From Clostridia bacterium (lineage in GTDB: Bacteria > Bacillota > Clostridia > RUG12999), in contig JAZSKI010000017.1 of the NCBI GenBank assembly GCA_045534775.1, positions 1 to 52,105 of the forward strand: a DNA stretch of 52,105 bases. Reading direction: 5' to 3'. Both the position numbers and the translations under genes were made by a program. The notes beneath the pieces were generated by a model that worked only from the letters and a program-made list of their open reading frames with translations, searched no databases and was not told the origin of the DNA. Below are positions 9,423 to 28,736 of the stretch, piece by piece. Each line of letters opens with the position of its first letter. Position 1 is the first letter of the stretch.

Positions 9423-9426
9423 AAGG

Positions 9427-9466: not shown

Positions 9467-9470
9467 ATTT

Positions 9471-9851
9471 TTATTTCACCGGAGATTTTTTAAAATGTTT
9501 GATTATATAAGTTATTCCCATACCTATAGCCGCGCCTGCCCAGTCCTTCAGTAAATCTGCAAATTCAAAGGCTCTGCCTTCCTTCAGAATTTCCTGGTAG
9601 CTTTCATCAAATACGGCAAAGAGAAAACAGAACAAAGCTGTCAAAGCTAGTGCTTTCTTCATATTCCAATATTCCTTCGCCAGACACAGGGCATTTATTC
9701 CCAGGAAGAAAAACAGCACTATATGTGCAACATAACGAAGCTCGTCGTTCTTTTCAGCTACATAATTATCTCTGGAGGATGTGTCTGCAGGTTCTTCCGA
9801 AACCGCAGAAATTATCTTTTCCGTCACATTTGTACTCAAAGCGTTGGACAT
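9471..9851 (-). CDS. VanZ-like family membrane protein (N-terminus probably extends to about 9929)
   Basis: FDESYQ....GR.FE..D...D..GA motif typical of VanZ-like proteins. An in-frame hydrophobic segment with no stop lies upstream of the first ATG. Confidence 0.7.
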   Translation of the reverse strand: MSNALSTNVTEKIISAVSEEPADTSSRDNYVAEKNDELRYVAHIVLFFFLGINALCLAKEYWNMKKALALTALFCFLFAVFDESYQEILKEGRAFEFADLLKDWAGAAIGMGITYIIKHFKKSPVK

Positions 9852-9966: not shown

Positions 9967-11139
9967 CTATAATCCTATTTCCCGTAAAAGCTCCTTTGCT
10001 TCGTCGGCCTTTCCCTTCGGGATGTTCCTGCTGTATTCAAGCTCCTGCCGGGTTTCCTTTGCAACGCCGCGAATAAGAAGGTTTATCCATCTGTACACGT
10101 GCATAAAGGGCAGTAGCCATCCATGCTTTAATAATATGGGGTAATACCTTTTCATAGTACAATATGGCAAGAATATTCTGGAAATTATATATTGCACTTT
10201 TCCGCCTTTTTTCTGCTGTTGCACTAATATTTTGTTTTCAATATTTCCGTGGACGCCGCCTGAAATTATAAAATTCTGCATCTTTTCGGTAACAGCATCA
10301 CATTCCTCGCCTTCAAGCCAAACCCTGCTGAGTCTGCGGGCTTTTTCGCTGAATTTCAGTAATTTCCCCCGTTTAAGCAAGCTGTCGCGCTTTTCTCTGT
10401 TTATATTTTCAATATTATCCAAAATCCATAAATCTATAAATGGTCTTATGCCGCAACCGCCTATCTGCAGGTGCTTTGCCATATGTGCTATATGGAAAAA
10501 ATAAAACATCTCGTCTGTCATTTCGTGGTAACAGGTGTATCCTTCTTTGGGTTGCACGTAATTCCATACATCATCAAGCATCTTCGTTATTTCTTTTGAA
10601 ATCCCGTCATCTATCAGTCCGAAATGAAGCTCTACGTGGACTTCTGAAGGCGAATATAGACATATATCATATTCATTCTGTTCGTGTTCGCTATATTGAA
10701 GCTCTTTTACCAGACACGAAACAGCATTTCTTAAATCCTCTTTTTTAACCAGAATATCTATATCGCTGCTTGTCCGCATCCACGGGTTTGGGTAATATTT
10801 TCTTATTTCAGAGCCTTTCAGCGGCACAAAGGAGATTTTTGCTTTTTCAAACACATTACATATTCTTGTAAGCTCATAGTTTAATTTTTCATAACGGTAA
10901 ACCGCTATAAGCGGAACCTGGTCAATATTAGTCGTCCCTTTTTCAATAATATCATTTTTTATGATTCCCATGGCCACAAGCTGTGAAACATCATGTTTTT
11001 GAGCAAGCCGGAGAACTTTTACTAAATTTTCTTTATCTGCCAGAAATTCTTTTTCGGTATCATCTACAGGCTTGTCGCTGAAAGCAGCCCTAAGTGCGGC
11101 AAACAAAGCCTTATTAATATTTTCTTCCATATAAGTCAC
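9967..11139 (-). CDS. Uncharacterised nucleotidyltransferase family protein (last gene of the polysaccharide operon)
   Basis: 390 aa. The SSDIDILV nucleotidyltransferase-fold motif resembles the PF14907-type proteins common in EPS loci. Confidence 0.6.
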   Translation of the reverse strand: MTYMEENINKALFAALRAAFSDKPVDDTEKEFLADKENLVKVLRLAQKHDVSQLVAMGIIKNDIIEKGTTNIDQVPLIAVYRYEKLNYELTRICNVFEKAKISFVPLKGSEIRKYYPNPWMRTSSDIDILVKKEDLRNAVSCLVKELQYSEHEQNEYDICLYSPSEVHVELHFGLIDDGISKEITKMLDDVWNYVQPKEGYTCYHEMTDEMFYFFHIAHMAKHLQIGGCGIRPFIDLWILDNIENINREKRDSLLKRGKLLKFSEKARRLSRVWLEGEECDAVTEKMQNFIISGGVHGNIENKILVQQQKKGGKVQYIISRIFLPYCTMKRYYPILLKHGWLLPFMHVYRWINLLIRGVAKETRQELEYSRNIPKGKADEAKELLREIGL

Positions 11140-11144
11140 CGCCT

Positions 11145-12383
11145 TCAGTCTCTCCTGAACAAGTCTCTTGTATAAACCTTTTCGTCTACATCATCCAAAC
11201 AGCTGTCATATCTGTTGGCAACTATGGCATCGGATATTTTTTTAAATTCCTCCAGGTTATTCACAATTCTGCTTCCAAAAAAGGTACTGCCGTCATTTAA
11301 GGTTGGTTCGTATATGACAACCGTTGCACCCTTTGCTTTAATTCGTTTAATAACTCCCTGGATACTGCTTTGGCGGAAATTATCGGAATTTGATTTCATA
11401 GTTAATCTGTAAATCCCGATAACACAGGGATGCTCTTTGCTTTCATTATAGTCGCCGCAGCTGTAGTAATCATAATAGCCCGCCATATTCAATATCTGAT
11501 TGGCAATAAAATCTTTTCGGGTACGGTTACTCTCTACTATGGCACTCATCATATTCTGCGGTACACTCTCGTAGTTGGCAAGTAACTGTTTGGTGTCCTT
11601 CGGCAAACAATAGCCGCCATACCCGAAGGAAGGATTGTTGTATTGGTCTCCTATGCGCGGGTCAAGGCAAACCCCTTTAATAATCTGTTTTGTGTCAAGT
11701 CCCTTCACTTCTGCGTAGGTATCAAGCTCGTTGAAATAAGAAACGCGAAGTGCCAGATAGGTATTTGCGAACAGCTTTACCGCCTCTGCCTCGGTGCTTC
11801 TCATAAACAGGGTATCAATGTTTTCTTTTACAGCACCTTCCTGCAAAAGTGCCGCAAAGGCTTTTGCCGCCTCTGCTATTCTCGGATTATCCATATCCGC
11901 ACCTATGATAATGCGGCTGGGATACAGATTATCGTATAACGCCTTAGATTCTCTTAAAAATTCAGGGCTGAACATAATATTATCCGTATTATATTTTTTT
12001 CGTACCGATTCGGTGTAGCCTACGGGAATGGTGGATTTAATAACCATTACAGCTCTTGGGTTTACCGATAGTACCGTTTCAATTACAGCTTCAACTGCCG
12101 AGGTATCAAAAAAGTTTTTTGCACTGTCGTAATTTGTCGGTGCGGAAATAACAACAAACTCCGCATCACCGTAAGCTGATTTACCGTCTAAGGTTGCGGT
12201 TAAATCAAGTTCCTTTTCGGCAAAATATTTTTCAATATATTCATCTTGTATAGGAGATTTCCTGCTGTTAATCATCTCCACCTTTTCAGGAATAATATCC
12301 ACCGCCGTTACCTGATGGTGCTGTGCCAACAATGTGGCTATAGATAAACCGACATAGCCGGTACCTGCAACTGCTATTTTCAT
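11145..12383 (-). CDS. ugd: UDP-glucose 6-dehydrogenase
   Basis: [14 protein letters not shown] Rossmann start. Catalytic region [11 protein letters not shown]. 412 aa. Confidence 0.92.
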
Positions 12384-12407
12384 TTTGTACCTCCGAAATG
12401 TTTATTC

Positions 12408-13958
12408 TCACGCTTTCCTCTTTGTAACAAAGCCCTTTATATATGCAACCGTTTCCTTAAAAATCGTTGTTCTGCCGTATATTATCAATGATAATCCGGT
12501 TACTGCTACGGCACAGACCGTTCCGTGAACTATGAAGGAAATCAACGGATTTTCAATTTTTATAAAACTGTTTAACGCCGCTGATACCATCACGCCTAAA
12601 ACAACTACGACAAACCATACGGCATATTCTTTAAAATAATTGATAACCTTTTCTTTAAAGGCATGCTTGTATATTACGTATGGGTCAAACCAAAACTGTG
12701 TCACCAGTCTTGCAATTACCGAGCCTGCATAAACACCGGGCGCTCCCCATACAAGGGCTCCCGTAATTGAAGCTATTATATTAATTATTGCCATTATCAG
12801 CGGTCTATACTGTCCTTGTACGAAGAGACCGTTTGCATCTCTGTAGGATGCGACAAGGGTAGTATTCCCTTTCAGGAAGAAGTCAAAGCACAGAAAGAAA
12901 ACCAGCCATTTATCTATGATATACTCTCCTCCCAGCCAGACATCTCCTACAAATTCATCAAGCAACACATACAGACACACCGAACATAACGCAAAGAAAT
13001 AGGTGCAGACAAAATTCATAATTCTGAAAAGCAAATACTGTCTCTTCCTGTCCTCCGATGCCGCAAGGTTTCCTATGCTTGACGTAACAGAGCTTAAAAA
13101 CTGGAGCGCCAACGCGTAAATCTCGTTTATTATCATGCTATAGTTTGATATGAACCCGACTATCGCCGAGCTGATCATAGAAGATACGATAATACTGTTT
13201 GTTCCGTTAAGAACCGTACCCGATACCTTGTACAGCGATAATGCCTTTACATTTTTAAAAATAGATTTCCTTTCCTCTTTTGAAACCCTTTCCTTCGGAT
13301 AGGCTTTAATGGTTGTGAATTTTTTATCTGCAATCAAGGCACTTACTCCGTTTTGCAGTGCGGTAAACGCTATAGTCAAAATGAGATATAGTATAAAATC
13401 CTTCCATATCGCTATAACAACAATCTGAAAAATTGTTCTTACAATTACAAAAATTGCATTGACTGCCGAAATAACATATCCCTGCTGATTTGCCGTCAGC
13501 AGTGTTGATTTGTAAATTAAAAGATATGATACCGATGTGTTTAAAACATACAGAAAATATATAAGTCTTATATCCTCTTTTACGTTGGGCACATCTGTTA
13601 TAATATGATTAACAAAGGGTAGTAATGCCGCTCCGACTAAAAATACGACCGCCGCAATGGTCCTGTATGCGGCTTTATATAAATTCATCAGTCCCGCTAT
13701 CCGGCAATAGTCCTTTTCAGCCAGTGGTTTATACAGAGAATAGGTTATTGCAGAGCCTATCCCCAGCTCTGCAAAAGACAGCACCATCAGAACCTGCGTA
13801 AAAACTGATGATACGCTTGTATATTCAATGCCTAAATATGCTATGAAAATCGTCCTTGATGCAAAATTCGCAATAAGGGCTACTAATTTATATATGAGCC
13901 CCACACTTGTATTGGCTATTGTTTTTTTTACTCTTGACCCATCACTTCGGCTATTCAT
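12408..13958 (-). CDS. wzx: Wzx-type oligosaccharide flippase (MOP superfamily)
   Basis: 516 aa, hydrophobic throughout with many TM helices. Position in the glycan operon fits. Confidence 0.8.
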   Translation of the reverse strand: MNSRSDGSRVKKTIANTSVGLIYKLVALIANFASRTIFIAYLGIEYTSVSSVFTQVLMVLSFAELGIGSAITYSLYKPLAEKDYCRIAGLMNLYKAAYRTIAAVVFLVGAALLPFVNHIITDVPNVKEDIRLIYFLYVLNTSVSYLLIYKSTLLTANQQGYVISAVNAIFVIVRTIFQIVVIAIWKDFILYLILTIAFTALQNGVSALIADKKFTTIKAYPKERVSKEERKSIFKNVKALSLYKVSGTVLNGTNSIIVSSMISSAIVGFISNYSMIINEIYALALQFLSSVTSSIGNLAASEDRKRQYLLFRIMNFVCTYFFALCSVCLYVLLDEFVGDVWLGGEYIIDKWLVFFLCFDFFLKGNTTLVASYRDANGLFVQGQYRPLIMAIINIIASITGALVWGAPGVYAGSVIARLVTQFWFDPYVIYKHAFKEKVINYFKEYAVWFVVVVLGVMVSAALNSFIKIENPLISFIVHGTVCAVAVTGLSLIIYGRTTIFKETVAYIKGFVTKRKA

Positions 13959-14976
13959 ATACTTTCCCTTCCAATATGCTCTTTAATGCAGGCTTCAGAC
14001 CTTCCTCATCATTCCCGCGGGCAACCTGCATTACTACACTGCAGAAGCTTTCATTACCTTCAATAATATCAATTTCACCGGATTCTGTAACTGCTACATC
14101 CCAAGCCACAATACCGATTTGCGGTACTACCTCTGCCGCTTTTTTAACCGTTTCCACGGCTGCCTCCCAGCAAGGTATATAAAAATCTTCTTCTGAATCT
14201 TCCAAAAACTGCTCTTGTCGGGATTCACATGCCGATAATTTGACAAAAAACGGCGAGTTTATTTTTCCTGTTTCTATATCTATACCCGCCATTTTTCCGC
14301 CTTGGGAAAAATTATCTATTTTGGCATCCTCTCCCCTGCCCGCTCTTACTCCGGCAAACAAAAGAGTTACACCGAAGTCATTTCTCACGGTTACTATCCT
14401 CATGGTGTTTAAGGAAGTAGGGTTTAATTTTTTCAGTTTGGTATGATTGTATATCTGCTCTTCAATCAGATTAAAATTCTGTTCCTTTATGTGTGCCAAA
14501 ATCTCATCAAGATCATCATTTTCCGTAATATTTATTACTTCAACCTGTTTTCCGCTGTCGCCGTAGCTTGCCTTTGCAACAACATTTTTATGCTTCGCTA
14601 AAAATGCTTTTACTTCTTCATCCGACAGCCCATCAGTGCATATCCACGCTCTTTTTATAAACTCCGAAAATTTATCTAAAAACTGTACCTTCTCATGAAA
14701 TAAATTTCTGTATTCTTTTTTGTTGATTTTATCATAAAGCTTGAAATTATAAAATGTCGTTATGTAAGTATTTCTGTTTTCGGGCGAACGGAAATAGAAA
14801 TTCAAATCTCCGTATTCACCCCAGATTGCACCGTATTTTAAGGCACATCCTATCATATCAATAATAATTTTAAAGCGCGATATGTTTTGTTGCTGTGAAA
14901 TTCTTGAAGCTACAGCTATTAAATCTTTCCGCTTATTCTTTTTATACAAATAATACAGTGGGTCTAATATATACAT
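13951..14976 (-). CDS. Sugar-transfer-associated ATP-grasp ligase (putative amidoligase)
   Basis: 341 aa. VAK.S.G.SGK.V, MRIVT and the WDVAV...GE..IIEGN ATP-grasp C-terminal signature. Overlaps the flippase gene by 8 nt. Confidence 0.65.
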   Translation of the reverse strand: MYILDPLYYLYKKNKRKDLIAVASRISQQQNISRFKIIIDMIGCALKYGAIWGEYGDLNFYFRSPENRNTYITTFYNFKLYDKINKKEYRNLFHEKVQFLDKFSEFIKRAWICTDGLSDEEVKAFLAKHKNVVAKASYGDSGKQVEVINITENDDLDEILAHIKEQNFNLIEEQIYNHTKLKKLNPTSLNTMRIVTVRNDFGVTLLFAGVRAGRGEDAKIDNFSQGGKMAGIDIETGKINSPFFVKLSACESRQEQFLEDSEEDFYIPCWEAAVETVKKAAEVVPQIGIVAWDVAVTESGEIDIIEGNESFCSVVMQVARGNDEEGLKPALKSILEGKVYE

Positions 14977-14993
14977 TCCAATTCCTCCTTATG

Positions 14994-16157
14994 TTAATTT
15001 TGTCTTAAAATGTCAGATTTCAGTCTTGCTATAAATTTTTCAAACTCTTCTGCTTCCTTTGCCGTTGCCGCCTTGATTCTATCGTCATAGCTTCCCCTTA
15101 AAGCCTCATCAACAGTATTCAATATATCTTCGTTTTTCGTGCTTTTCCCATCATAGTAAAGCTCCGGCAGGCAAAAGCGGGTTATAAACAAATCCTTAAG
15201 CTTGCCTTCATAATTTTCATCATTATATCCCGAATAATCTATTGCTACTGCAGGTGTTCCCTGTACTAAAGACAGCAGGCAACCGTGAAAATAGCTTGTT
15301 ACTACTACCGCCGCCTCCGATAATACCGCCGCCCATTCAAAAGGCGTCAAATCATAGAGATAATAATCCGCATCTGCCAAAGGATTAAAAAGAGTTATTA
15401 TTTGATATTCGTCGGAATATTTTTCTCTGATTTTTTTAACCATCTCAGATTTTGGCATCATCACGACCATATATTTTTTTCTTAAATCGCATTTATGGGT
15501 TTTAAGTATTCGCTCTTTATAGTTTTCCGCAAGGCTTTTAATTCGTTTTTTATCAATAAACAAAGTCGGGTCACAGCAATGCACCGGTTTCACATTGTCA
15601 TTGCAATATGTTACAAATTTTTCCGTATTGGCATCACGCACACCGATTAATTTCATTTTTTCAAAAGCTGTTGCGCATTCCTCCATCTGCGTCCTTGCCT
15701 CTTCAAGATAGCGCAACCCGTGAACTGATGCCGCATAGGTTACAACCTTGCATTTTTTAAAGTCATATAAGGGAATAAACGCCGATGGATAGCCGTTTTG
15801 CTTCCAGTTAAAAACCGCATCGCTGCCTATAATCAAAATATCATAGTTATTATCAATATATGAATACAGCTCTTTTAAATCCTTAAATTTATTTTTCTTT
15901 GAAAGAGATAACCGGCTATAAGATTTTTTAAAAGCATTGATTTTTTTAATATTATACCAAAATCCCGTCTTAATTCCGTAATGTTTTATATCACATAACA
16001 CATTTATCATTATTCTGCTGCTTTCATCTGATGCAACATAATCAATTATTTCCACCTCATCAGGGAAAAGTGTTGATAATTTTTCTGAGAAGGAAAAGGA
16101 TTGCAAAAATGCGCCGTAATTTATCGGTTTATGAAATGTTAATATGCCTATTTTCAT
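14994..16157 (-). CDS. Polysaccharide pyruvyl transferase family protein
   Basis: MKIGILTFHKPINYGAFLQSF N-terminus typical of CsaB/WcaK/EpsO-type pyruvyl transferases. ATG 16157 follows AGGAGGAG. Confidence 0.75.
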   Translation of the reverse strand: MKIGILTFHKPINYGAFLQSFSFSEKLSTLFPDEVEIIDYVASDESSRIMINVLCDIKHYGIKTGFWYNIKKINAFKKSYSRLSLSKKNKFKDLKELYSYIDNNYDILIIGSDAVFNWKQNGYPSAFIPLYDFKKCKVVTYAASVHGLRYLEEARTQMEECATAFEKMKLIGVRDANTEKFVTYCNDNVKPVHCCDPTLFIDKKRIKSLAENYKERILKTHKCDLRKKYMVVMMPKSEMVKKIREKYSDEYQIITLFNPLADADYYLYDLTPFEWAAVLSEAAVVVTSYFHGCLLSLVQGTPAVAIDYSGYNDENYEGKLKDLFITRFCLPELYYDGKSTKNEDILNTVDEALRGSYDDRIKAATAKEAEEFEKFIARLKSDILRQN

Positions 16158-16176
16158 ATTACTCCTCCTAAAAAAT

Positions 16177-18419: not shown

Positions 18420-18429
18420 TTATTTCCCC

Positions 18430-19341
18430 TCATTCAAATACTTTTTGCCATGCCTTTATAAAAAAGGCTGTTTTTGAATTCCAAAAGCCTTTTTCATATT
18501 TTTCCCACTTCTCGGCATAGCATTTATATATTTCATCTCCGAATAAATCAAACATCACCTTCAGCTGTGCTATGTGAAGCTTATGATAAAACGGACTGCA
18601 AATCCTTTTTCCGTACTCATATTTACTCCAGAATTTCAAATCAAATTCGGGCAATCGGGCTTTTAAGGTATCCAGGGTTTTGTTTAACACCGACAAAACC
18701 TCGGTATCATCAATATATTTTGTATAATCATATAATCCCCATAATAAAAATATCCAGCCGTTCAGGATAAGCGGGTCATGGGTACATTCATACAAATATA
18801 CGCCACCGTCCGAATAATTTGTCGTGCCGCCCTCCGATATTGGTTTAAGCATAAAATCCTTTGCTTTTTTTATTGCCGCGAAATATTTTTCGTCTTTGGT
18901 CTCAATATGTGCTCTTATAAGCATTGAGATACCTTCGCCCTGCGCCATTGAAGAATACGGATGCTTCGGGCTTTCATACTCAAAGGTACTCCACCCGCCG
19001 TCCGGCTGCTGATTTTCCACAGCCCAGTCTGCACAGGCAATAAGCTTCGTTTTATACCTTTCTTCCTTTGTTTTAAGATACAAATCATACGCTCCGAGAC
19101 CGTACTGGAAAATTCCGATTGAAAAATATATCTCCTCGCCCGTATCTACGTGATATTTAGGTACAAGAATTTCCGGGTTATCCTTTGTAACCTTTTCTGT
19201 TAAATCATTATAATATCCCTGTATTTCGGTTTTGGAATAACAAGTCCCCTCGCCTTGATTGACGTGAGAAATGCTTTTCCCCGTCAGCATCTTATACCAT
19301 TTTTTTATCTTATAAACAGAAACGCCCATACTCTTACTCAC
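18430..19341 (-). CDS. D-glucuronyl C5-epimerase C-terminal-domain homologue
   Basis: 303 aa. DGGW...YSSMAQGEGISMLIRAH and NGW.F.L.GLYDY match the animal heparosan glucuronyl C5-epimerase family signature as I recall it. Confidence 0.65.
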   Translation of the reverse strand: MSKSMGVSVYKIKKWYKMLTGKSISHVNQGEGTCYSKTEIQGYYNDLTEKVTKDNPEILVPKYHVDTGEEIYFSIGIFQYGLGAYDLYLKTKEERYKTKLIACADWAVENQQPDGGWSTFEYESPKHPYSSMAQGEGISMLIRAHIETKDEKYFAAIKKAKDFMLKPISEGGTTNYSDGGVYLYECTHDPLILNGWIFLLWGLYDYTKYIDDTEVLSVLNKTLDTLKARLPEFDLKFWSKYEYGKRICSPFYHKLHIAQLKVMFDLFGDEIYKCYAEKWEKYEKGFWNSKTAFFIKAWQKVFE

Positions 19342-20380
19342 CCTCTATTTTATCAATTAACACCTTAACGGCCCGGTCTGTCTGATATTTTTTTGCTTCT
19401 TTTATACAGTTTCCCTTCATATCCAAAAGAATTTTCGGGTCTGAAGCCGCCTGCATAAGTATATCTTCAAATTCCTTCAAATTATCAAATTCGTATCCTA
19501 TTCCCGTTTCTCCGTCCTTCACCACATCAGAAAAGCTTTGCCATTTTGCACAGATAACCGGAATCCCTGCCCCATAGGCATCTATTATCGTCCCCGGGAT
19601 TCCTTCCGTATAAAAATGCGTCGGAAACAAAAGTGCATAATAGTCCTTTAACGCTGTTACGCTTTTATTTGCTTCCACAAAGCCTTTATAGCTTATATAA
19701 TCAGGAAAGCTCTTTTGCTGTTCTTCAAACCACGTTTTGCTTTCCTCCCATATCTGACCGTATATATCAAGGGAAAAAGCTGTATATCCCACTTGTTCGT
19801 TTACTTTTTTAATTATGTCAACCGCTGTCGCTATTCCCTTCTCCTTCATAACCCGGGAAAAGGTACATAATTTCAGCGGTGTGGTTTTGGGATAAATCAG
19901 CTCGCCCTCTGACAGAACCTCTAATTTTTTGCAGTTGGGTAAAATCTCAAGATTTTCAAGTCCCATATTTTCCAGCGCTTTTTTCATAGTAGCCGTTTCC
20001 ACGTAAACTCCACGGAATTTCTTAAGCCCTTCTATCAGCCATTTTTTATCCTCCGCAAATTTGGGCAGCCACCCTCCGATTACCACATAGTGTAATTTTT
20101 TTCTGAAAAAAAAGTTCCATACCCGCAGAAGCGGAACCAAAAGCTTAAGTCCGTTTTCCACCGGCATCATTATCAAATTATCGCATTTCGCCAAAACACA
20201 AGGGATTTTCAAGAGGAAATACGGGATTTTCCTGATACCGCCTGCCAAATCAAGCTTAAGCACGTTTTCTTCTCCAAGCCTGCTTTCAAGCTCTTCGGTT
20301 ATGATTTTAGTCTTTACGGTCTGCCCGTTGAGCAAAGTCTTTCCAAAGCCAAAATGCCCTATTACGCATATTTTGCTCAT
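19334..20380 (-). CDS. Family 4 (GT-B) glycosyltransferase
   Basis: FPT..YTEGIPGTIIDAYGAGIPVI......ETG (EX7E region). ATG 20380 follows GAGGTG; the ORF-track GTG at 20392 overlaps the upstream stop. Confidence 0.8.
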   Translation of the reverse strand: MSKICVIGHFGFGKTLLNGQTVKTKIITEELESRLGEENVLKLDLAGGIRKIPYFLLKIPCVLAKCDNLIMMPVENGLKLLVPLLRVWNFFFRKKLHYVVIGGWLPKFAEDKKWLIEGLKKFRGVYVETATMKKALENMGLENLEILPNCKKLEVLSEGELIYPKTTPLKLCTFSRVMKEKGIATAVDIIKKVNEQVGYTAFSLDIYGQIWEESKTWFEEQQKSFPDYISYKGFVEANKSVTALKDYYALLFPTHFYTEGIPGTIIDAYGAGIPVICAKWQSFSDVVKDGETGIGYEFDNLKEFEDILMQAASDPKILLDMKGNCIKEAKKYQTDRAVKVLIDKIEGE

Positions 20381-20388
20381 ACTGCACC

Positions 20389-21162
20389 TCACATAAAATA
20401 TTTTTTAAAGGCATTGAAGCAGAATCGGATAACATTAATACCTGCCCGCATTTTTCCTATTTTTTCGTCCTGCGTTTGTATCTCCCACACCTGCTTAATA
20501 CTTTTAAATTTATTGGAGGAAAGCGACCCGCTTGCTACTCTGTATCGTACCAAAGCTTCGTTAATTCCGCAGGCAACAGCCCCGTCTCTCAGAAGCTTAA
20601 GCCAGGTTGCATAGTCCTGACCGCCTCGTCTGAGAGGCATGCGGAAATCACCCAGCACAGCTCTGTCTATTACCACCGAGGAGGTGGGAATAACCGTATT
20701 GTGTAATAAATACTTATAATCACAGGTTTCTGTAATGTTTCGTTTTGATTTTATGGTCACTCCGTTTTCATCCATCATCTCAATAGCCGTATAAGAAAAA
20801 GGAGAGCTTTTCAGGTTCATTAGCTCCAGCTGTCTTTCTGTTTTAGAGGGCAACCAGATGTCATCGCTGTCCAAAAAAGCCGCATATCTGCCCTTCGCCA
20901 GCTCCAGCGCTTTGTTACGGGCGGCTCCTGCTCCCATATTTCTTTCCTGAATAAAATACACGATTTCGGGATGAGTTTTTTGCAATTCTTTAATAATCTC
21001 TGCCGAGCTATCCTTTGAACAGTCATCTACCAACACAATTTCTATGTTTTTATAGGTTTGATTAAATATTGAATCCAGCGCGGCGGTTAAGTGTTTTTCC
21101 GCATTATATATGGGCATAATAACCGACACAAGCCCTTCAGCATATTCTCTGTTCATCTGCAC
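20389..21162 (-). CDS. Family 2 (GT-A) glycosyltransferase
   Basis: VSVIMPIYNAEKHL...QTYKNIEIVLVDDCSKDSS and FLDSDD motifs. Confidence 0.88.
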   Translation of the reverse strand: MQMNREYAEGLVSVIMPIYNAEKHLTAALDSIFNQTYKNIEIVLVDDCSKDSSAEIIKELQKTHPEIVYFIQERNMGAGAARNKALELAKGRYAAFLDSDDIWLPSKTERQLELMNLKSSPFSYTAIEMMDENGVTIKSKRNITETCDYKYLLHNTVIPTSSVVIDRAVLGDFRMPLRRGGQDYATWLKLLRDGAVACGINEALVRYRVASGSLSSNKFKSIKQVWEIQTQDEKIGKMRAGINVIRFCFNAFKKYFM

Positions 21163-21174
21163 TCCCCTACCCTA

Positions 21175-22101
21175 TCAATAAATTGGTGTAAGCCATTTTT
21201 TCAGCTTGTCATTTTTCCCCGTAGCTGCTTCCAGATATAGCTTATGAAGCTTTGCCGTTATCTCCCCTATTGTGCCGTCGCCGATAACATATTTATCTAT
21301 GGAAAGCACCGGTGTAATCTCCATTGCCGAACCGCAAAGGAAGGCTTCCCCGCAGGTATAAAGCTCGTTTCTGTCTATAGTTCTCTCAACAACGGGAACA
21401 TTATTTTCCTCTGCTAATTTAATCACCGTATCTCTTGTAATGCTTTCGAGAACACTGTCAGTCAGCAAAGGTGTGACAAGCTTCCCGCCCGATACCATAA
21501 AGAAGCATGAGCCGGGTCCTTCCGATACCTTGCCCGCCTCATTTAAAAACAAGCAGGTATCATAGCCGTTTCTTAAGGCTTCCTTCTGCCCCGCGCGGCT
21601 GTTCATATAGTTTGCGCCGCATTTAATTCTCGGTGAAAGAGTTGTATCAGAAATTCTCCGCCAGGAGGTAACACAGCAATTAAGCCCTTTTTTATTATAT
21701 TCCGCACTTGTTTTTCCCCTCGGAATAGGTGCAACGAACATATTTACGGGATCCTCCGACCCCCACGAGCCAAAGCCGTCAACAAACAAGGTCTGGCGGA
21801 CGGAAAGGTTTTCATCATATTCATTGGCTCTGACAACATCAATCAGCGCTTTTTTCAGCTCTTCTTTCGTATAGGGAACATCTATACGAAGTAATCTTGC
21901 AGAACGAATCAATCTGCTGTAGTGGTCGTCTAAACGGAAGGCATAAAGCTGTTTGTCGGTTTCATTCCAATAACAGGGAATCCCCTCAAATACATTCAGT
22001 CCGAACTGTGCTGTCGGCGCAAGAATATTCACCTTTGCGTCGTTGACATTCATAATCTCGCCTTTAAACCAAATAAATCTGTTTGCAACATCTGTTTTCA
22101 T
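21175..22101 (-). CDS. Class IV (fold-type IV) aminotransferase, branched-chain / D-amino-acid aminotransferase family
   Basis: 308 aa. FGLNVFEGIPCY, NYMNSR and VSEGPGSCFFMV..GKLVTP motifs. Confidence 0.8.
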   Translation of the reverse strand: MKTDVANRFIWFKGEIMNVNDAKVNILAPTAQFGLNVFEGIPCYWNETDKQLYAFRLDDHYSRLIRSARLLRIDVPYTKEELKKALIDVVRANEYDENLSVRQTLFVDGFGSWGSEDPVNMFVAPIPRGKTSAEYNKKGLNCCVTSWRRISDTTLSPRIKCGANYMNSRAGQKEALRNGYDTCLFLNEAGKVSEGPGSCFFMVSGGKLVTPLLTDSVLESITRDTVIKLAEENNVPVVERTIDRNELYTCGEAFLCGSAMEITPVLSIDKYVIGDGTIGEITAKLHKLYLEAATGKNDKLKKWLTPIY

Positions 22102-22113
22102 GCTGTTTCTCCT

Positions 22114-22812
22114 TTAAACCAACAATTCATCATCCGGCAAATGAGCAAGCCTTATGATTTCCTCTTCAGCCAATTTTGCGGCAGTCTCATCATCCAGCGT
22201 TTCATCTGCTTTTTCTTCATAAATATCCTGTTTTTTGAAAACCTTTGCCACGGTTCCGAAAATAATCTTTATATCAAGCCATATTCCCTGTTTTTTAAAC
22301 TTGTCTATGTACTCATTATCAAAGGTTACCTTTTCGTCCCAGTTATTTTCGTTTCTTCCCTTTATCTGAGCAAGTCCCGTTATCCCCGCTTTGACCTCAA
22401 ACCTTTTCTTATATTTTTTGTTCAGGGTGTCATAATCGCCTAACTCATATATAACAGGAGGTCTCGGTCCTACTATGGACAAATCTCCTTTGATTACGTT
22501 TATAAGCTGCGGCAGTTCATCTATACTGCTGCTTCTCAGCCATTTCCCCGATTTTGTTACTCTGGGGTCATTTTCAAAATTAAAAAGTCCCGATCCCATA
22601 TTTTCAGCATCCATAACCATAGTTCTCAGCTTATACATCTTAAAAACTCGCCCGCCTCTTGTTCTGCGGTCCTGTATAAAAAAAATCGGGCCCCTGCTGT
22701 CAATTTTTATTATAATTGCAGCTATCAATAAAAGCGGTGACAGCACCAACAATGCCAATGAGCAGCATACTATATCCATAATTCTTTTTAAAAACAGATT
22801 AAAAGAATACAT
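22114..22812 (-). CDS. Initiating undecaprenyl-phosphate sugar-phosphate transferase (small bacterial sugar transferase, EpsL/PglC-like)
   Basis: Single N-terminal TM helix plus the DELPQLINVIKGDLSIVGPRP signature. Confidence 0.88.
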   Translation of the reverse strand: MYSFNLFLKRIMDIVCCSLALLVLSPLLLIAAIIIKIDSRGPIFFIQDRRTRGGRVFKMYKLRTMVMDAENMGSGLFNFENDPRVTKSGKWLRSSSIDELPQLINVIKGDLSIVGPRPPVIYELGDYDTLNKKYKKRFEVKAGITGLAQIKGRNENNWDEKVTFDNEYIDKFKKQGIWLDIKIIFGTVAKVFKKQDIYEEKADETLDDETAAKLAEEEIIRLAHLPDDELLV

Positions 22813-22829
22813 ACATTGCCTCCTCTTTT

Positions 22830-24050
22830 TTAAAAAGTATATGTATGAAAAATATCATCAAAATTTTCTTTCCTTTTAATTACCTGAGCCTCTTCACCGC
22901 CTATATCTATGATGGGGAAATTAGGTAATATAAACGGAGGTTTCATAACTATGGAATAAGAACCGCAATTGGAAAATATTATATAATCCCCTACCGCTAT
23001 TTCTCCTTCAAATCCGCGGTACATAACATCATTTTCAATGCAGGTATAGCCCACAATATCCGCACCTTTGTAATATTTCCCTTCCCCGCCCGTTGAAACA
23101 ACCTTTATGGGAGGATTTACGTTTCCCATACTGATATTTTTCTGGCTGCCGAGAATCGTAATAAAGGTTTTCCCCCGTACCTCTTTTATTGTCTCAACTC
23201 TGCCGACAAATCGCATAGAGTCGCCTGCCAGAGCCGAGCCGGGTTCTATAATAAGCTCAGGTAGCTCATCAGGAAATTCTTTGGCGATAACCGCCCCCGC
23301 TTCCCGCGCATAATCCTTATATGACGGAATCCGATAGCTGAACTGCTCTTTCAGGGATTCTTCCATATTCCCGTATATTCCGCCGCCTAAATCTATCCTT
23401 TCAGGCAAATAGCCCATAATTTTCGATACCTGTTTTACAAGCTGCGCCATTCCCGTCGCACGTTTATGCCAATATTCAACATTTCTTTTGGCAAAATGAC
23501 ATTGAAGGCTGATTAAATGTACATTACTCAGCCCCTCAATAAATTTAACAGTATTTAAAAATTCATCGCTTTCCGAATCTATGCCAAAACGCGAAACAAC
23601 GCCGTCACCTACGTCAAAATTACATCTGATTCCAACGTTAAAGATGCGGCCTGTGCAGCTTTCCGATAATTCCTTGATCATTTCCAGTTCATGCACGGAA
23701 TCAATATTTATTGTTCCTCCTGTCAAAAGAAGCTCTTTTGCTTTTAAAGAATCCTTAACAGGGCCGTTCCAGATAATTTTTGAAGGCGGCACTCCTACCC
23801 GCAAAGCAATCTCCAGCTCCATATCTGAAACCACTTCACCGTACCCGCCTTTTTTATTAACTATTTTACAAAGCTTTGGTGTATAATTAGTCTTATACGA
23901 ATATGCAATATTAAAATTCGGATATATTTTTTTAAATTCCCGGCTCAGTCTTTCATAATTTTCTTCAAAAATTTTTGAATCCAATATGTAAAAGGCATTG
24001 CCGAATTTTTCCGATAGCTCTTCAAGCCTTTCTCTCGTTATATCACACAT
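22830..24050 (-). CDS. PLP-dependent decarboxylase, Orn/DAP/Arg decarboxylase (fold-type III) family
   Basis: 406 aa. AYSYKTNY (PLP-Lys region), IDLGGG, EPGSALAGD and CGSYS motifs in DAP-decarboxylase order. Confidence 0.75.
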   Translation of the reverse strand: MCDITRERLEELSEKFGNAFYILDSKIFEENYERLSREFKKIYPNFNIAYSYKTNYTPKLCKIVNKKGGYGEVVSDMELEIALRVGVPPSKIIWNGPVKDSLKAKELLLTGGTINIDSVHELEMIKELSESCTGRIFNVGIRCNFDVGDGVVSRFGIDSESDEFLNTVKFIEGLSNVHLISLQCHFAKRNVEYWHKRATGMAQLVKQVSKIMGYLPERIDLGGGIYGNMEESLKEQFSYRIPSYKDYAREAGAVIAKEFPDELPELIIEPGSALAGDSMRFVGRVETIKEVRGKTFITILGSQKNISMGNVNPPIKVVSTGGEGKYYKGADIVGYTCIENDVMYRGFEGEIAVGDYIIFSNCGSYSIVMKPPFILPNFPIIDIGGEEAQVIKRKENFDDIFHTYTF

Positions 24051-24879
24051 TTGTTTTCTCCTTGATTTTGTTTACAATCATATCGACACATTCGGCGATA
24101 TTTTTTATATTCTGTTTAAATGTGATTTCCGATACTTTTCTGATTGAATGCTCATATTCACGGAATATAAACATTCTTTTTCTGAAGCTTTCTTCAAATT
24201 CCTCTATGCTGTCAAAATCCTCAGCCTTACAGAAGCTTCTGGATAAAATCGACATTTTCGAACCAAGCCTGTAATGCTCCATAACTATTTTCTCCGAAGG
24301 CAAAAGACCCTCACCTATGCAGGCAACTCCTCCAAAGCCGTATTTTATACCTTTGTTTTTCATCTTATTGCAAAGCTCTTCAACCAGTCCATCGGCTAGA
24401 AGCTCAAACATAAAGGTCTTTTTATAGCTCAAATGCAAATCATTTAAGCCTATATGTATTTCGCTGAGCATGGGATGCTCCAATACCTCATCAATACATT
24501 CGACTGCTTCTTTTGTTTCAAGCAGAAGAATAGTCGGCACGCGGTTGTTTACAGCTCTGAAAAACCTGTCAACCTCATCACAGGTCTTCCACATAGGAAG
24601 CATTATACATTGAGCTCCCGCCTCAATTACATCATTTATTTCCTTTTCAGAATTTTCATTCCAGGGGTTTATCCTTACCAATAATTCCGATTTTGTAAGA
24701 ATTTTTGATATTTTTCTTACATCCTCCACTGTATGCGTTGACTTAACAGTGTCCATATTTCTTTGTCTTTCTTTTTTGCCGATTGTCTCCAAATCAATCC
24801 ACACACGTGCCACACCGTATTTTTCCGCAATCAATGCCACGTCCGGATTGTTTGTTATATACATAAATTCCAGAGCCAC
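24043..24879 (-). CDS. HpcH/HpaI aldolase / citrate-lyase-beta-like TIM-barrel protein (first gene of the operon)
   Basis: 278 aa. WIDLE...R.N...E...A.....MLPM....E......LLLET.EA pattern. Start is either GTG 24879 or ATG 24864. Confidence 0.55.
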   Translation of the reverse strand: MALEFMYITNNPDVALIAEKYGVARVWIDLETIGKKERQRNMDTVKSTHTVEDVRKISKILTKSELLVRINPWNENSEKEINDVIEAGAQCIMLPMWKTCDEVDRFFRAVNNRVPTILLLETKEAVECIDEVLEHPMLSEIHIGLNDLHLSYKKTFMFELLADGLVEELCNKMKNKGIKYGFGGVACIGEGLLPSEKIVMEHYRLGSKMSILSRSFCKAEDFDSIEEFEESFRKRMFIFREYEHSIRKVSEITFKQNIKNIAECVDMIVNKIKEKTNV

Positions 24880-24924
24880 TATTAAATCACTGCCTTTCTA
24901 AAAACAACAGAAGCGTTAAAACAA

Positions 24925-24950
24925 GGGGGCCTTTATATAATACCCCCCCC
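24925..24950 (-). promoter_or_regulatory. 5'-terminal G8/C5 hairpin in the polysaccharide-operon leader (stabiliser or attenuator candidate)
   Basis: Minus-strand reading: aaaaaaa-gggggggg-tattatataaag-gccccc-ttgtttt. C8 homopolymer at 24943..24950. Confidence 0.5.
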
Positions 24951-24957
24951 TTTTTTT

Positions 24958-24986
24958 ATTTTAGCATATCTTTGGCTTTTTGTCAA
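24958..24986 (-). promoter_or_regulatory. Sigma-A-type promoter of the polysaccharide operon (TTGACA-17-TAAAAT)
   Basis: Minus-strand TTGACA = 24981..24986 and TAAAAT = 24958..24963, with a 17-bp spacer. Confidence 0.6.
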
Positions 24987-25025
24987 GAGAAAGATGGTTT
25001 TATCTCTTTTTTAACAGTAAAAAAA

Positions 25026-25069
25026 GCCTCCCGGTTTTTGTGCAAACTGCATAAAAACCGAGGGCTTTT
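25026..25069. terminator. dprA terminator (bidirectional-looking imperfect hairpin)
   Basis: aaaaa-gcctcccggttttt ... aaaaaccgagggc-tttt immediately downstream of the dprA stop. Confidence 0.6.
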
Positions 25070-25075
25070 CCTATG

Positions 25076-28727: not shown

Positions 28728-28736
28728 GAAAGTGGT

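Follow-up and report, generated by a model that had tools for sequence, protein, structure and literature searches.

The window, i.e. the whole analysed stretch of 52,105 nucleotides, includes 14 open reading frames that are all located on the minus strand and span 24879..9967. Gene content was assigned by Pfam and NCBIfam profile matches. The genes (g1–g14) and the elements flanking them, given in the direction of transcription, are the following:

25011..25073, minus strand: intrinsic terminator after dprA, strong hairpin and U7 (fold -29.7 kcal/mol, z -6.07)
24958..24986, minus strand: sigma-70-type promoter, TTGACA-17-TGcTAAAAT (11/12, extended -10)
24880..24957, minus strand: 5' leader, with a G8/C5 hairpin at ~24918-24954 followed by a U-rich tract
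24043..24879, minus strand: g1, HpcH/HpaI-like class II (metal-dependent) pyruvate-aldolase-fold protein (Pfam 35.8 bits, cut-off 25)
22830..24050, minus strand: g2, fold-type III PLP decarboxylase (Orn_Arg_deC_N 85 bits)
22114..22812, minus strand: g3, small monotopic phosphoglycosyl transferase (PGT; PglC-like), the initiating enzyme (Bac_transf 212 bits)
21175..22101, minus strand: g4, class IV (branched-chain-type) aminotransferase (Aminotran_4 159 bits)
20389..21162, minus strand: g5, GT2 glycosyltransferase, TuaG-like (Glycos_transf_2 122 bits)
19334..20392, minus strand: g6, GT4 glycosyltransferase (Glycos_transf_1 50.6 bits)
18430..19341, minus strand: g7, D-glucuronyl C5-epimerase homologue (C5-epim_C 132 bits)
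17427..18419, minus strand: g8, GT-B-fold glycosyltransferase-like protein (AF2 pLDDT 92.4)
16177..17430, minus strand: g9, Wzy-type polymerase (Wzy_C 30 bits, just below the 31.7 cut-off)
14994..16199, minus strand: g10, polysaccharide pyruvyl transferase (PS_pyruv_trans 99.8 bits)
13951..14976, minus strand: g11, ATPgrasp_ST amide ligase (PF14397 135 bits)
12408..13958, minus strand: g12, Wzx-type flippase (homology to a PF01943 protein; ten hydrophobic segments)
11145..12383, minus strand: g13, UDP-glucose 6-dehydrogenase (all three UDPG_MGDP_dh domains)
9967..11139, minus strand: g14, NTP_transf_5 nucleotidyltransferase-fold protein (PF14907 131 bits)
9471..9851, minus strand: VanZ-like membrane protein, probable 15th gene (VanZ 51.5 bits, model positions 52-125 only)
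9423..9465, both strands: bidirectional intrinsic terminator, 19-pair stem (minus-strand fold -21.3 kcal/mol, z -6.26)

The ORF listing reproduced the 14 co-oriented, closely spaced genes of the preliminary description to the exact coordinate: the widest intergenic gap within the run is 24 nt, a 4-nt overlap (ATGA) is present at 17427-17430, and 8-nt overlaps at 13951-13958, 19334-19341 and 24043-24050. An additional 4-nt overlap, beyond those described earlier, was found at 20389-20392. The promoter, previously singled out as the one good candidate, was indeed the top match within 9000-26500 and sits between the dprA terminator and g1. Promoter-like matches in total were at chance level (53 vs 51.9), as were terminator-like matches (15 vs 13.6), and the minus-strand terminator-like matches within the operon were few, weak and inside coding sequence, in agreement with the earlier statement that no internal terminators could be seen. 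The dprA terminator, the fold of which was equalled by 0 of 200 shuffles, shields the operon from upstream transcription. The 5' leader had no match in Rfam and its fold (-19.9 kcal/mol, z -1.28) was not significant. The VanZ-like ORF is preceded by a 115-nt AT-rich gap without a terminator, and the terminator at 9423..9465 is common to this ORF and the convergent fumarate hydratase gene. Because this hairpin sits after the VanZ-like ORF, the transcription unit probably includes it and comprises 15 genes. Given the small gaps and overlaps, the single strong promoter and the flanking terminators, the 14–15 genes are a single Wzx/Wzy-type operon for an acidic surface polysaccharide.

The operon is located near the replication origin, as noted earlier. 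Five housekeeping genes separate the promoter from dnaA, which starts at 31232, and the DnaA-box cluster at 28645-28758 together with the turning point of the GC skew at ~32-33 kb therefore places the origin region ~3.7-6.2 kb from the promoter. The check for GC deviation gave no signal (0.390 in the locus vs 0.393 in the remainder of the window). The usual Gram-positive capsule regulators are missing, as had been described: no homologues of CpsB, CpsD, LCP, the NusG paralogue, PglF or DegT were found anywhere in the window, the sole match in this search being a ParA-like ORF. For GyrB and Fhs no relative of at least 90% identity was present among ~15 billion proteins.

The profiles confirmed HpcH_HpaI, Orn/DAP/Arg decarboxylase, Bac_transf, Aminotran_4, GT2, GT4, C5-epim_C, PS_pyruv_trans, ATPgrasp_ST, UDP-glucose dehydrogenase and NTP_transf_5, and the gene content given in the preliminary description, including a GT-B-like g8 and Wzx g12, was borne out when the g8 model and g12 homology were added. 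g8 had no match in Pfam or NCBIfam, and none of its 570 homologues carried a Pfam domain. In Foldseek its model matched GlgM, SenB, BshA, MshA and Gtf3 (TM 0.65-0.72), which confirmed, at the level of the predicted structure, a glycosyltransferase-like GT-B fold. In the loci compared, its gene always comes after the C5-epimerase gene. g12 had no direct Pfam match; homology to a protein carrying PF01943 in locus L105 (35% identical, E 2e-97) confirmed its assignment as Wzx.

Among the other downstream genes, g6 was 44-54% identical to its counterparts in L083, L100, L102 and L106. g7 matched human and zebrafish GLCE (E ~1e-15) and is predicted to convert GlcA to IdoA; by manual residue counting it has Tyr at the positions aligned to Y500, Y560 and Y578, and Leu where E499 aligns. 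g9 has at least eight hydrophobic segments, and its positional homologues in L102, L106 and L107 score on Wzy_C. The real start of g10 may be an ATG 14 codons further downstream. g13 reached 581 bits with PRK15057 (cut-off 757) and passed the NDP-sugar dehydrogenase subfamily model (309 > 190). g14 had no relative in PDB or NCBIfam, and a homologue (25% identical) was found in the ATP-grasp locus L105. This gene content supports the earlier prediction of an acidic, pyruvylated, uronic-acid-containing polymer.

The first five genes form the head cassette, which opens with g1. The AF2 model of g1 (pLDDT 92.9) had its closest PDB folds in HpcH/HpaI/YfaU (TM 0.60-0.67), and its invariant residues R69, E121 and D147 occupy the aligned positions of the Arg and the Glu/Asp metal ligands found in class II pyruvate aldolases. 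Over 8000 g1 homologues were found, 582 representatives at E≤1e-30. g2 was rejected as LysA itself (152 bits vs the 298 cut-off) and retained only as a relative of DAP decarboxylases; its PDB relatives are LysA, FslC and BtrK. The top PDB match of g3 was the diNAcBac-1-P transferase PglC (134 bits). g5 scored 243 bits on the TuaG model, under the cut-off of 400, and probably performs the second sugar transfer.

The 99 related loci surveyed were chosen by similarity to the g1 of the window, so that type A loci are over-represented; the informative related loci, with at least 3.3 kb downstream, numbered 60. The order HpcH–decarboxylase–PGT–aminotransferase was found in 45 of the 60, ahead of varied glycan genes, and a PGT was at most two genes away in 59. 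The identity of g4 across type A loci was 61-81%, and that of g3 60-73% vs 37-55% beside other module types. Judged from gene order and identities, the head cassette, found widely among gut and rumen Clostridia, is a unit built round the PglC-like initiating transferase, and the aldolase, decarboxylase and aminotransferase belong with that enzyme. No description, enzyme assay or glycan structure was found for it in the literature. Parts of it are exchangeable: the aminotransferase alone stands in for aminotransferase plus decarboxylase in L052 and L096, and in L017, L043, L092 and L095 both give way to a D-2-hydroxyacid dehydrogenase, in some cases accompanied by an Asn-synthase-like gene.

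Fusions of the HpcH-like domain were catalogued among 50%-identity cluster representatives, and 20 fusion proteins were examined; these are metagenome gene calls, a number of which may have arisen from frameshifts or assembly errors, P0397 being the only one checked on DNA. The domain was joined to PGT (P0314, P0320, P0322, P0347, P0406), to PGT and GT4 (P0339), to GT4 (P0330), to the decarboxylase (P0315, P0324), to 2-Hacid_dh (P0344, P0370), to Ldh_2 (P0317), to a Polysacc_synt_2 dehydratase domain (P0397, confirmed on contig L109) and to a PglF-type N-terminal domain (P0312 and an ORF of L005). None of the 20 combined it with ATP-grasp.

That g2 (lysA-like) and g4 (ilvE) are amino-acid genes present in a glycan operon by chance, with no role in the polysaccharide, is extremely improbable. 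g4 does exceed the NCBIfam IlvE equivalog cut-offs (296.9 > 279 and 277.4 > 245.55) and no model scores g2 higher than LysA, but g2 reaches only about half of the LysA cut-off; moreover, the position of both genes is kept in the 45 loci from different organisms, both are missing where the 2-hydroxyacid dehydrogenase substitutes, and two representatives carry the decarboxylase and the HpcH-like domain on one polypeptide.

The survey also separated the head cassette from the genes that follow it. In L106 and L107 the block GT4–C5-epimerase–g8–Wzy–pyruvyl transferase–ATP-grasp–Wzx is arranged as in the window, but the head is DegT–PGT–Hexapep, i.e. a classical DegT/acetyltransferase starter-sugar module replaces the cassette ahead of the same block. 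The block genes of L106 were 45-62% identical to those of the window, and its PGT and GT2 38% and 36%, vs 63-70% and 61-74% in HpcH-headed loci; the latter range is that of g5 in L083, L100/L101 and L102, which match the window in head type as well as in downstream block. g5 thus co-varies with the head type. Pyruvyl transferase, ATPgrasp_ST and a Wzx homologue of 510-525 aa were grouped in eight other loci, with identities as low as 36%, the PS_pyruv_trans gene being immediately upstream of ATPgrasp_ST in seven of them while L104 has a dehydrogenase gene between; by this conservation the three genes are a separate module. The preliminary description had called the gene combination unlike any characterised locus, and no characterised match was found, but the combination is not unique, as the uncharacterised metagenome loci L102, L100/L101 and L083 are nearly syntenic.

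These data bear on the idea, implied earlier, that the ATP-grasp enzyme is served by a tailoring set of aldolase, decarboxylase and aminotransferase: the aldolase would join pyruvate and a small aldehyde, g4 and g2 would give a free hydroxy-alkylamine, and g11 would couple it through an amide to the carboxylate of GlcA/IdoA, in the manner of the C. jejuni HS:2 glucuronamide system. All four genes share one operon with Ugd, L004 has the head cassette with an ATPgrasp_TupA gene, and the precedent is real, since in Campylobacter jejuni PLP enzymes make the amine and the TupA-like ATP-grasp Cj1438C amidates GlcA (PMC11800379). ATPgrasp_ST, a small family with 64 matches, also recurs in the near-syntenic L100-L102. 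It was, however, present in none of the 44 other type A loci of the census (visible flanks), a single type B locus (L095) had it, at 28% identity, and the trio occurs without it in dozens of the 99 loci. Conversely, the ATPgrasp_ST block is also found under DegT-type heads (L106, L107, L108) or without such a head (L103-L105). As the PGT and GT2 co-vary with the cassette, and the 20 fusion proteins examined join the HpcH-like domain to PGT, GT4 and a sugar dehydratase domain but never to ATP-grasp, this reading is very doubtful.

The explanation that fits best, to which we give an even chance, is a three-module Wzx/Wzy operon in which the aldolase, aminotransferase and decarboxylase build an unusual amine-bearing branched first sugar of the repeat unit. 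The chemical steps that we infer would be as follows. In module 1 (g1–g5), the HpcH-like enzyme would add pyruvate enolate to a carbonyl on the first-sugar precursor, most probably the 4-keto group of a UDP-4-keto-6-deoxy-HexNAc supplied by a PglF/CapD-type dehydratase whose gene would lie in another part of the genome. The 2-oxo-acid side chain of the product would be converted to an amino acid by the branched-chain-type aminotransferase and to a primary amine by the PLP decarboxylase, after which the PglC-like transferase would transfer the resulting sugar-phosphate to undecaprenyl phosphate and the GT2, which co-varies with the head, would add sugar two. Chemistry on a 2-oxo acid is favoured by the replacements of g4 and g2 listed above and by the aldolase fold and ligands of g1, and a role in the starter sugar by the DegT–PGT–Hexapep heads that stand in for the cassette. 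A chemical precedent for such a branch is shewanellose, a 6-deoxy-HexNAc whose C4 bears a C3 branch derived from a 2-oxo acid (PMC4052302). Module 2 (GT4, C5-epimerase, g8 and Wzy) would, with Ugd, supply GlcA, partly or wholly epimerised to IdoA, and polymerise the unit. Module 3 (pyruvyl transferase, ATPgrasp_ST and Wzx) would introduce a pyruvate ketal, amidate a carboxylate, presumably of the uronate or the pyruvate, by means of the ATP-dependent ligase with an amine or amino acid not derived from the head cassette, and export the repeat unit through the matching flippase. With one initiating transferase, GT2, GT4 and g8, a repeat unit of about four sugars is predicted. Since g4 passes the IlvE cut-offs, it could use an ordinary small 2-oxo acid instead.

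The cassette might also make a free small molecule (amino alcohol, amino acid or hydroxy acid) that a locus-specific transferase attaches, e.g. by CDP-activation and a LicD phosphodiester, its linkage to the PGT reflecting only a conserved 5' position. HpcH-family enzymes such as HpaI and YfaU normally act on small aldehydes, the aminotransferase resembles an ordinary branched-chain one, and 7-8 loci have CTP_transf_like and LicD genes after the cassette. Neither LicD nor a cytidylyltransferase is present in the window, however, the visible sequence of many type A loci offers no enzyme that could attach such a product, and the fusions to PGT and Polysacc_synt_2 domains, the DegT/Hexapep replacement and the co-variation of PGT and GT2 would be left unexplained. 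This alternative is unlikely.

A further alternative, unlikely although a real possibility, is that the same chemistry takes place later, on an Und-PP-sugar or Und-PP-disaccharide after the PGT and the first glycosyltransferase, and not on the nucleotide sugar. The fusions P0339 and P0330 and the membrane-anchor fusions (L005 ORF, P0312) would suit this timing. The PGT fusions do not require such timing, since in Neisseria PglB a PGT is fused to the enzyme making its own UDP-sugar substrate; the fusion to a dehydratase domain points to the nucleotide-sugar stage, and the co-variation of the PGT with the module type suggests that it sees the modified sugar.

Against the branched starter sugar, the PGT–HpcH pair of L013 and L015 lies amid housekeeping genes with no other glycan genes. 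In its favour, of the 30 loci with good coverage 17 have a PglF/CapD-like dehydratase close to the cassette, often as the gene just upstream; the other 13 have none nearby. The window likewise includes no 4,6-dehydratase or other keto-sugar-making enzyme, which weighs against this reading and leaves the 4-keto group as a candidate carbonyl acceptor. The DegT-headed L107 locus is also without a dehydratase, which shows that dehydratase supply in trans is normal.

The fourteen genes of the operon, g1 to g14 in order of transcription, are all co-oriented and run from 24879 down to 9967 on the minus strand. The ORF listing reproduced exactly the overlaps reported in the preliminary description (ATGA at 17427..17430; 8 nt at 13951..13958, 19334..19341 and 24043..24050), and the widest intergenic gap was 24 nt. 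Searches against Pfam and NCBIfam confirmed each of the gene assignments made there, with g8 and g12 giving no family match. Also the reading of the locus as a Wzx/Wzy-type polysaccharide operon was supported, as was the predicted acidic, pyruvylated, uronic-acid-containing polymer, for which the UDP-glucose dehydrogenase Ugd (g13) would supply GlcA. Overall the locus is an ordinary heteropolysaccharide operon of this type, built from exchangeable modules, and what makes it interesting is the cassette at its head, widespread, undescribed and probably for a starter sugar.

The initiating phosphoglycosyl transferase (PGT) g3 matched Bac_transf with 212 bits and had PglC as its top PDB match. The candidate Wzy polymerase g9, a polytopic protein, scored 30.0 bits with Wzy_C, just below the cut-off of 31.7, and its positional homologues match Wzy_C. 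For g12 there was no direct Pfam match, and BLASTP against a Polysacc_synt-annotated fragment from the related locus L001 found nothing; the protein is 35% identical (E 2e-97) to one in the same position in locus L105 that bears PF01943, has about ten hydrophobic segments and is assigned as a Wzx (MOP-family) flippase. The last gene, g14 (NTP_transf_5), had no characterised relative in PDB or NCBIfam searches, and a gene of its type recurs in L105. No CpsB, Wzz/CpsC, CpsD, LCP or NusG paralogue was found in the 52-kb window, in agreement with the earlier statement that the usual Gram-positive capsule regulators are absent, and one ParA-like ORF was the sole match. In many related loci an LCP ligase, a PHP phosphatase, Wzz/CpsC and CpsD are present upstream of the cassette (clusters c5, c6 and c29).

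The following signals border the operon:

About 25011-25073, minus strand: intrinsic terminator after dprA, hairpin followed by U7 (-29.7 kcal/mol, z -6.07)
24986..24958, minus strand: promoter, TTGACA, 17 nt, TG-extended TAAAAT
24918-24954, minus strand: leader hairpin G8/C5 and then a U-rich tract, directly after the promoter (folding z -1.28, not significant)
9471-9851, minus strand: VanZ-like ORF, Pfam match only to C-terminal model positions 52-125 of 126
9423-9465, both strands: bidirectional hairpin of 19 pairs (z -6.26)

The promoter, previously described as the only good one, was the top match within 9-26.5 kb. In 9000-26500, neither promoter-like matches (53 versus 51.9 in shuffled sequence) nor terminator-like matches (15 versus 13.6) were enriched. 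The few minus-strand terminator candidates within the operon were weak and inside coding sequence. Neither the leader nor the window as a whole had a match in Rfam. NusG paralogues, which the window lacks, lie just upstream of the cassette in several related loci (L025, L031-L033, L036, L046, L048, L069 and L099), so that such leaders could be controlled by antitermination. The gap of 115 nt between g14 and the VanZ-like ORF is AT-rich and terminator-free, and a hairpin is found only after the latter, so that the transcription unit probably includes this ORF as a fifteenth gene. The ORF has no possible upstream extension, and the gene may be truncated or else a shorter variant. No GC deviation of the locus was found (0.390 versus 0.393 in the rest of the window).

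The head cassette comprises g1-g5. Altogether 99 related loci were gathered and their ORFs called and clustered, and the 60 in which 3.3 kb or more followed the g1 homologue formed the census; relatives of the window's g1 are favoured in this sample. A contig scan with a single protein query, based on narrow peptide patterns, gave only 14 loci, all MAGs. The order present in the window, HpcH-like protein, decarboxylase, PGT and aminotransferase (type A), was found in 45 of the 60 loci, usually followed by a GT2 gene and then by differing glycan genes, such as LicD with cytidylyltransferases, rhamnose genes or other glycosyltransferases. Two loci had the same order without the decarboxylase, and four combined PGT and HpcH with a D-2-hydroxyacid dehydrogenase (type B), three of these with an Asn-synthase-like gene as well. 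A PGT was at most two genes away in 59 of the 60 loci, and its median identity to g3 was 64% in type A, about 50% in the type without decarboxylase and about 42% in the others.

A PglF/CapD-like dehydratase was present near the cassette in 17 of the 30 well-covered loci, often immediately upstream, and absent nearby in 13. The window itself contains no dehydratase, DegT or hexapeptide acetyltransferase; the lack of a dehydratase in the window and near these 13 cassettes is a weak point for a keto-sugar acceptor. The type B composition with the Asn-synthase-like PP-loop protein was seen in L095 (10001-13464), L097 and L043. Two Oscillospiraceae/Eubacteriales MAGs have a lone PGT-HpcH pair (L013 9371-10834; L015 3107-4496), the neighbours being a metallophosphoesterase, an HI0933-like flavoprotein, a class V aminotransferase and a Mur-ligase-like gene; no glycosyltransferase, Wzx or Wzy was found near the pair, which is a weak point for reading the genes as a glycan cassette. 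No description of an HpcH-PGT cassette was found in the literature, and searches on the ATPgrasp_ST family and on aldolase-made C-branched nucleotide sugars gave no description of the cassette either.

The first gene of the cassette, g1, matched Pfam HpcH_HpaI with 35.8 bits (cut-off 25). Its AlphaFold model (pLDDT 92.9) is a TIM barrel with HpcH/HpaI/YfaU as the nearest structures (Foldseek TM 0.60-0.67), and R69 and the metal ligands E121 and D147 align with those of class II aldolases and are invariant across the family. On profile, alignment and model, g1 is assigned to the HpcH/HpaI class II aldolase family, with pyruvate aldol activity predicted. It shares the fold, the Arg and the Glu/Asp ligands with the class II pyruvate aldolases HpaI/HpcH and YfaU/RhmA (PDB 2v5j, 4b5s, 7et8, 2vws), but the identity to these is just about 15%, and g1 differs from them in two long helices added at its C-terminus (residues 225-277), in many further family-specific invariant residues and in a genomic setting of glycan initiation instead of aromatic or sugar-acid catabolism. 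Relatives of g1 number more than 8000, at about 60-65% identity and mostly from gut and rumen Clostridia; 582 representatives of 50%-identity clusters were found at E ≤ 1e-30.

Two other assignments of g1 were rejected. A PEP mutase would open a phosphonate route (PEP to phosphonopyruvate, phosphonoalanine and 2-aminoethylphosphonate), but g1 lacks the EDKxxxxxNS motif, and both profile and fold place it with HpcH/HpaI. For a PEP-utilising enzyme, the stretch IGLNDLH resembles GTNDL, yet there was no match to Pfam PEP-utilizers_C.

Two other predicted tailoring enzymes make up a trio with g1. The decarboxylase g2 scored 152.3 bits against the LysA model TIGR01048, about half of the cut-off of 297.9, and thus failed the equivalog test; its profile places it in the fold-type III decarboxylase superfamily and not in LysA. 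The class IV aminotransferase g4 was above the IlvE equivalog cut-offs (NF005146, 296.9 versus 279; TIGR01122, 277.4 versus 245.55) and by profile looks like a normal IlvE, which is likewise a weak point for the cassette reading.

Exchange between loci indicates the slot that the trio fills. Uncharacterised near-relatives of the locus are present in metagenomes: the gene order of L102, L100/L101 and L083 is nearly that of the window between HpcH and Wzx, L083 stopping after Wzy. Two further loci, L106 and L107, share with the window Ugd and the block GT4, C5-epimerase, g8, Wzy, pyruvyl transferase, ATP-grasp and Wzx (in L106 the block genes are 45-62% and Ugd 67% identical), and start with a DegT-PGT-hexapeptide acetyltransferase head, which classically provides a 4-amino-4,6-dideoxy-HexNAc as starter sugar. 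The identities of PGT and GT2 to those of the window are 38 and 36% in L106, versus 63-70 and 61-74% in the HpcH-headed loci. Since the head is swapped with PGT and GT2 changing along, the trio appears to occupy the starter-sugar tailoring slot, the enzymes predicted to recognise the first sugar changing with it. A third head type, with DegT, PIG-L, PGT, ATP-grasp_3 and GNAT, was found in L108. The split Ugd homologue of L102 (14440-15530; ORFs of 117 and 220 aa) points to a frameshift, pseudogene or assembly error.

Fusions of the HpcH-like domain were counted among the 50%-identity cluster representatives, and as they come from metagenome gene calls, they can be artefacts. PGT+HpcH was present in five representatives, HpcH+decarboxylase and HpcH+2-Hacid_dh in two each, and GT4+HpcH, a triple PGT+GT4+HpcH and HpcH+Ldh_2 were also found. 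One fusion to a Polysacc_synt_2 dehydratase domain (P0397) was confirmed as a single ORF on contig L109, and a PglF-type membrane/CoA_binding_3 N-terminus was joined to HpcH in P0312 and in an ORF of L005 (E 3e-19). By their domain content, the fusions seem to trace the pathway of the cassette. One further representative, P0313 (427 aa), has a response-regulator receiver domain N-terminal to the HpcH-like domain, which is unexplained.

Between loci the HpcH-like protein has varying partners: an aminotransferase of the branched-chain type, a fold-type III amino-acid decarboxylase, and two dehydrogenases, one for D-2-hydroxyacids and one of the Ldh_2 family. All these act on a 2-oxo acid or on the amino acid derived from it, consistent with a pyruvate aldol adduct as the shared intermediate. 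The most economical reading is a route of five steps with a putative keto-sugar acceptor: a dehydratase would form UDP-4-keto-6-deoxy-HexNAc, g1 would join pyruvate to the sugar ketone, the side-chain 2-oxo acid would be transaminated, the resulting amino acid would be decarboxylated, and g3 would load the modified sugar. Like the window, the DegT-headed L107 lacks a dehydratase in the locus, and in B. fragilis the dehydratase is encoded away from the polysaccharide loci, on which precedent supply in trans is a common arrangement.

Similar modules are known for bacillosamine- and AATGal-type sugars: PglF-PglE-PglD-PglC in Campylobacter, CapD/CapN/CapM in S. aureus and WcfR/WcfS in Bacteroides fragilis, and in Neisseria PglB is a PGT-acetyltransferase fusion. 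As in these, a small PglC-like PGT is flanked by tailoring enzymes (there for the dehydratase-derived UDP-4-keto-6-deoxy-HexNAc), the module heads variable loci, the dehydratase may be elsewhere and fusion of a tailoring enzyme with the PGT can occur; the heads of L106 and L107 are bacillosamine-type modules in the very slot of the cassette. However, the DegT aminotransferase and the acetyltransferase are replaced by the aldolase-like protein, the class IV aminotransferase and the fold-type III decarboxylase, and the predicted product has a new C-C bond and a side-chain amine instead of a ring 4-amino group. The trio thus seems to resemble the PglF/E/D/C module in position and modular exchange without being a member of it.

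The expected outcome of an aldol reaction between pyruvate and a 4-keto sugar is known from shewanellose, 2-acetamido-2,6-dideoxy-4-C-(3'-carboxamide-2',2'-dihydroxypropyl)-D-galactose, of the Shewanella putrefaciens A6 O-antigen (PMC4052302), a 6-deoxy-HexNAc with a three-carbon, 2-oxo-acid-derived branch at C4. It differs in coming from a Gram-negative O-antigen, whereas the type A cassette is predicted to go on to an amino acid and an aminoethyl branch. No description of the shewanellose biosynthetic genes was found in the literature. By analogy, the type B loci with the Asn-synthase-like gene would fit a shewanellose-like, carboxamide-branched product.

Tentatively, and with rather less than even confidence, we propose that the cassette encodes an undescribed, widespread pathway which forms a C-C bond between pyruvate and UDP-4-keto-6-deoxy-HexNAc and converts the side chain to a 2-aminoethyl group, with sister cassettes leading to hydroxy-acid or carboxamide branches and so explaining sugars of the shewanellose type. 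The amine-bearing branched sugar would start the repeat and, together with the uronate and the pyruvate ketal, give zwitterionic surface polysaccharides in commensals. In immunomodulatory zwitterionic polysaccharides the motif is a free amine beside a carboxylate, and human-gut and rumen Clostridia carry the cassette in abundance. If true, this would be a new starter-sugar route, in which an aldolase-made C-branch on a nucleotide carrier undergoes amino-acid-type transamination and decarboxylation, and it would fill the genetic gap behind shewanellose and other C-branched sugars.

The module of pyruvyl transferase, ATPgrasp_ST and Wzx is a smaller but concrete lead. The ATP-grasp protein g11 matched PF14397 (ATPgrasp_ST) with 135 bits (cut-off 31.4). 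The family is small, with 64 matches, and all nine contexts read were glycan loci, an NDP-sugar dehydrogenase being present in seven of the eight other than the window. The three genes stay together also in the headless L103-L105, and as they are kept either with DegT heads or without a head, the genes for the ATP-grasp protein, the pyruvyl transferase and the flippase form a module of their own. No ATPgrasp_ST homologue was found in the visible flanks of the other type A loci of the census. The idea that the trio supplies the amide substituent of the ATP-grasp enzyme was not supported, given the independent occurrence of the two across loci.

Campylobacter jejuni HS:2 likewise combines an ATP-grasp amide ligase with a UDP-glucose dehydrogenase in one capsule locus, and glucuronamide formation there involves the dehydrogenase Cj1441, the PLP enzymes Cj1436/Cj1437, the phosphatase Cj1435 and the TupA-like ATP-grasp Cj1438C (PMC11800379). 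Cj1438C amidates GlcA with the C6 carboxylate as acceptor (PMC11800379) and is closest to g11 in role, but g11 belongs to a different Pfam family, is stand-alone and is part of a Wzx/Wzy locus. Unlike in HS:2, it is always beside the pyruvyl transferase and Wzx and has no dedicated amine-supply genes; amine-supply enzymes co-inherited with the ATP-grasp gene were not found. The carboxylate acceptor could be a uronate or, given the constant pyruvyl transferase neighbour, the pyruvate ketal.

A second, divergent ATPgrasp_ST paralogue lies just after Wzx in L100 (13408-14295), L106 (10621-11661) and L107 (12645-13670), being 23-26% identical to g11 in L100 and L106, and hints at two successive ligations in these loci; the window has a single copy. 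The L104 block of pyruvyl transferase, ATPgrasp_ST, Wzx and 2-epimerase is directly followed, at 11688-13762, by genes for an ATP-grasp resembling D-Ala-D-Ala ligase and for an alanine racemase, which may be housekeeping genes or a source of D-alanine for the amide.

The other smaller lead is the Pfam-less GT-B family of g8, tied to the C5-epimerase gene. It comprises 570 proteins, none with a Pfam domain, and its gene always comes after that of the C5-epimerase. The AlphaFold model of g8 (pLDDT 92.4) matched the GT-B proteins GlgM, BshA, MshA, SenB and Gtf3 (TM 0.65-0.72), while by sequence hhalign against a GT4 alignment gave a probability of 3.4% and the PDB search only coiled-coil noise. 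From the structure model, and not from its sequence, g8 is thus predicted to be a GT-B-fold glycosyltransferase-like protein.

The C5-epimerase homologue g7 has a C5-epim_C domain of 132 bits. In the HMMER alignment, with the numbering counted by hand, it keeps the equivalents of the catalytic tyrosines Y500, Y560 and Y578 of human GLCE, but this putative epimerase has Leu at the position of E499. Homologues of about 300 aa are known from Ruminococcus, Bacteroides, Bacillus and the E. coli O112ab/Shigella boydii 15 O-antigen loci (PMC3068255), and a prokaryotic homologue is Halobacterium Agl32 (PMC12624080). Like these, g7 has about 300 aa and the C5-epim_C domain alone, and lies among glycan genes that include one for uronic-acid supply. 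IdoA has been reported in the polysaccharides of Clostridium perfringens Hobbs 10 and Butyrivibrio fibrisolvens X6C61 (PMC3068255; PMC12624080).

The operon had been placed next to the replication origin. On the opposite strand, from 31232 onwards, are the genes dnaA, dnaN and gyrBA, and the turning point of the cumulative GC skew is at about 32-33 kb, so that the origin region is indeed near, at an actual distance of about 3.7-6.2 kb. DnaA boxes (TTATCCACA, at most one mismatch) were enriched in the window, with 26 versus 14.4 expected:

28645-28758: cluster of three perfect boxes (28645-28727) and one imperfect box, about 2.5 kb from dnaA
32658-32833: second cluster, imperfect boxes, in the dnaA-dnaN spacer
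26202-26210 and 30249-30257: further boxes

The first box of the cluster at 28645-28758 is at the 5' end of ORF 27929-28654 and the last inside the 5' end of the listed tsaD ORF. The clusters could represent an origin in two parts or a promoter regulated by DnaA.

No relatives at 90% identity, and hence no sister strains, were found among about 15 billion proteins for GyrB, Fhs, the aminotransferase, Ugd and the ATP-grasp protein, each being a singleton, and the source organism is otherwise unsampled. No tRNA or Rfam family was found in the window. Two very large ORFs, 149-3214 on the minus strand (1021 aa) and 43899-48218 on the plus strand (1439 aa), flank the housekeeping regions.
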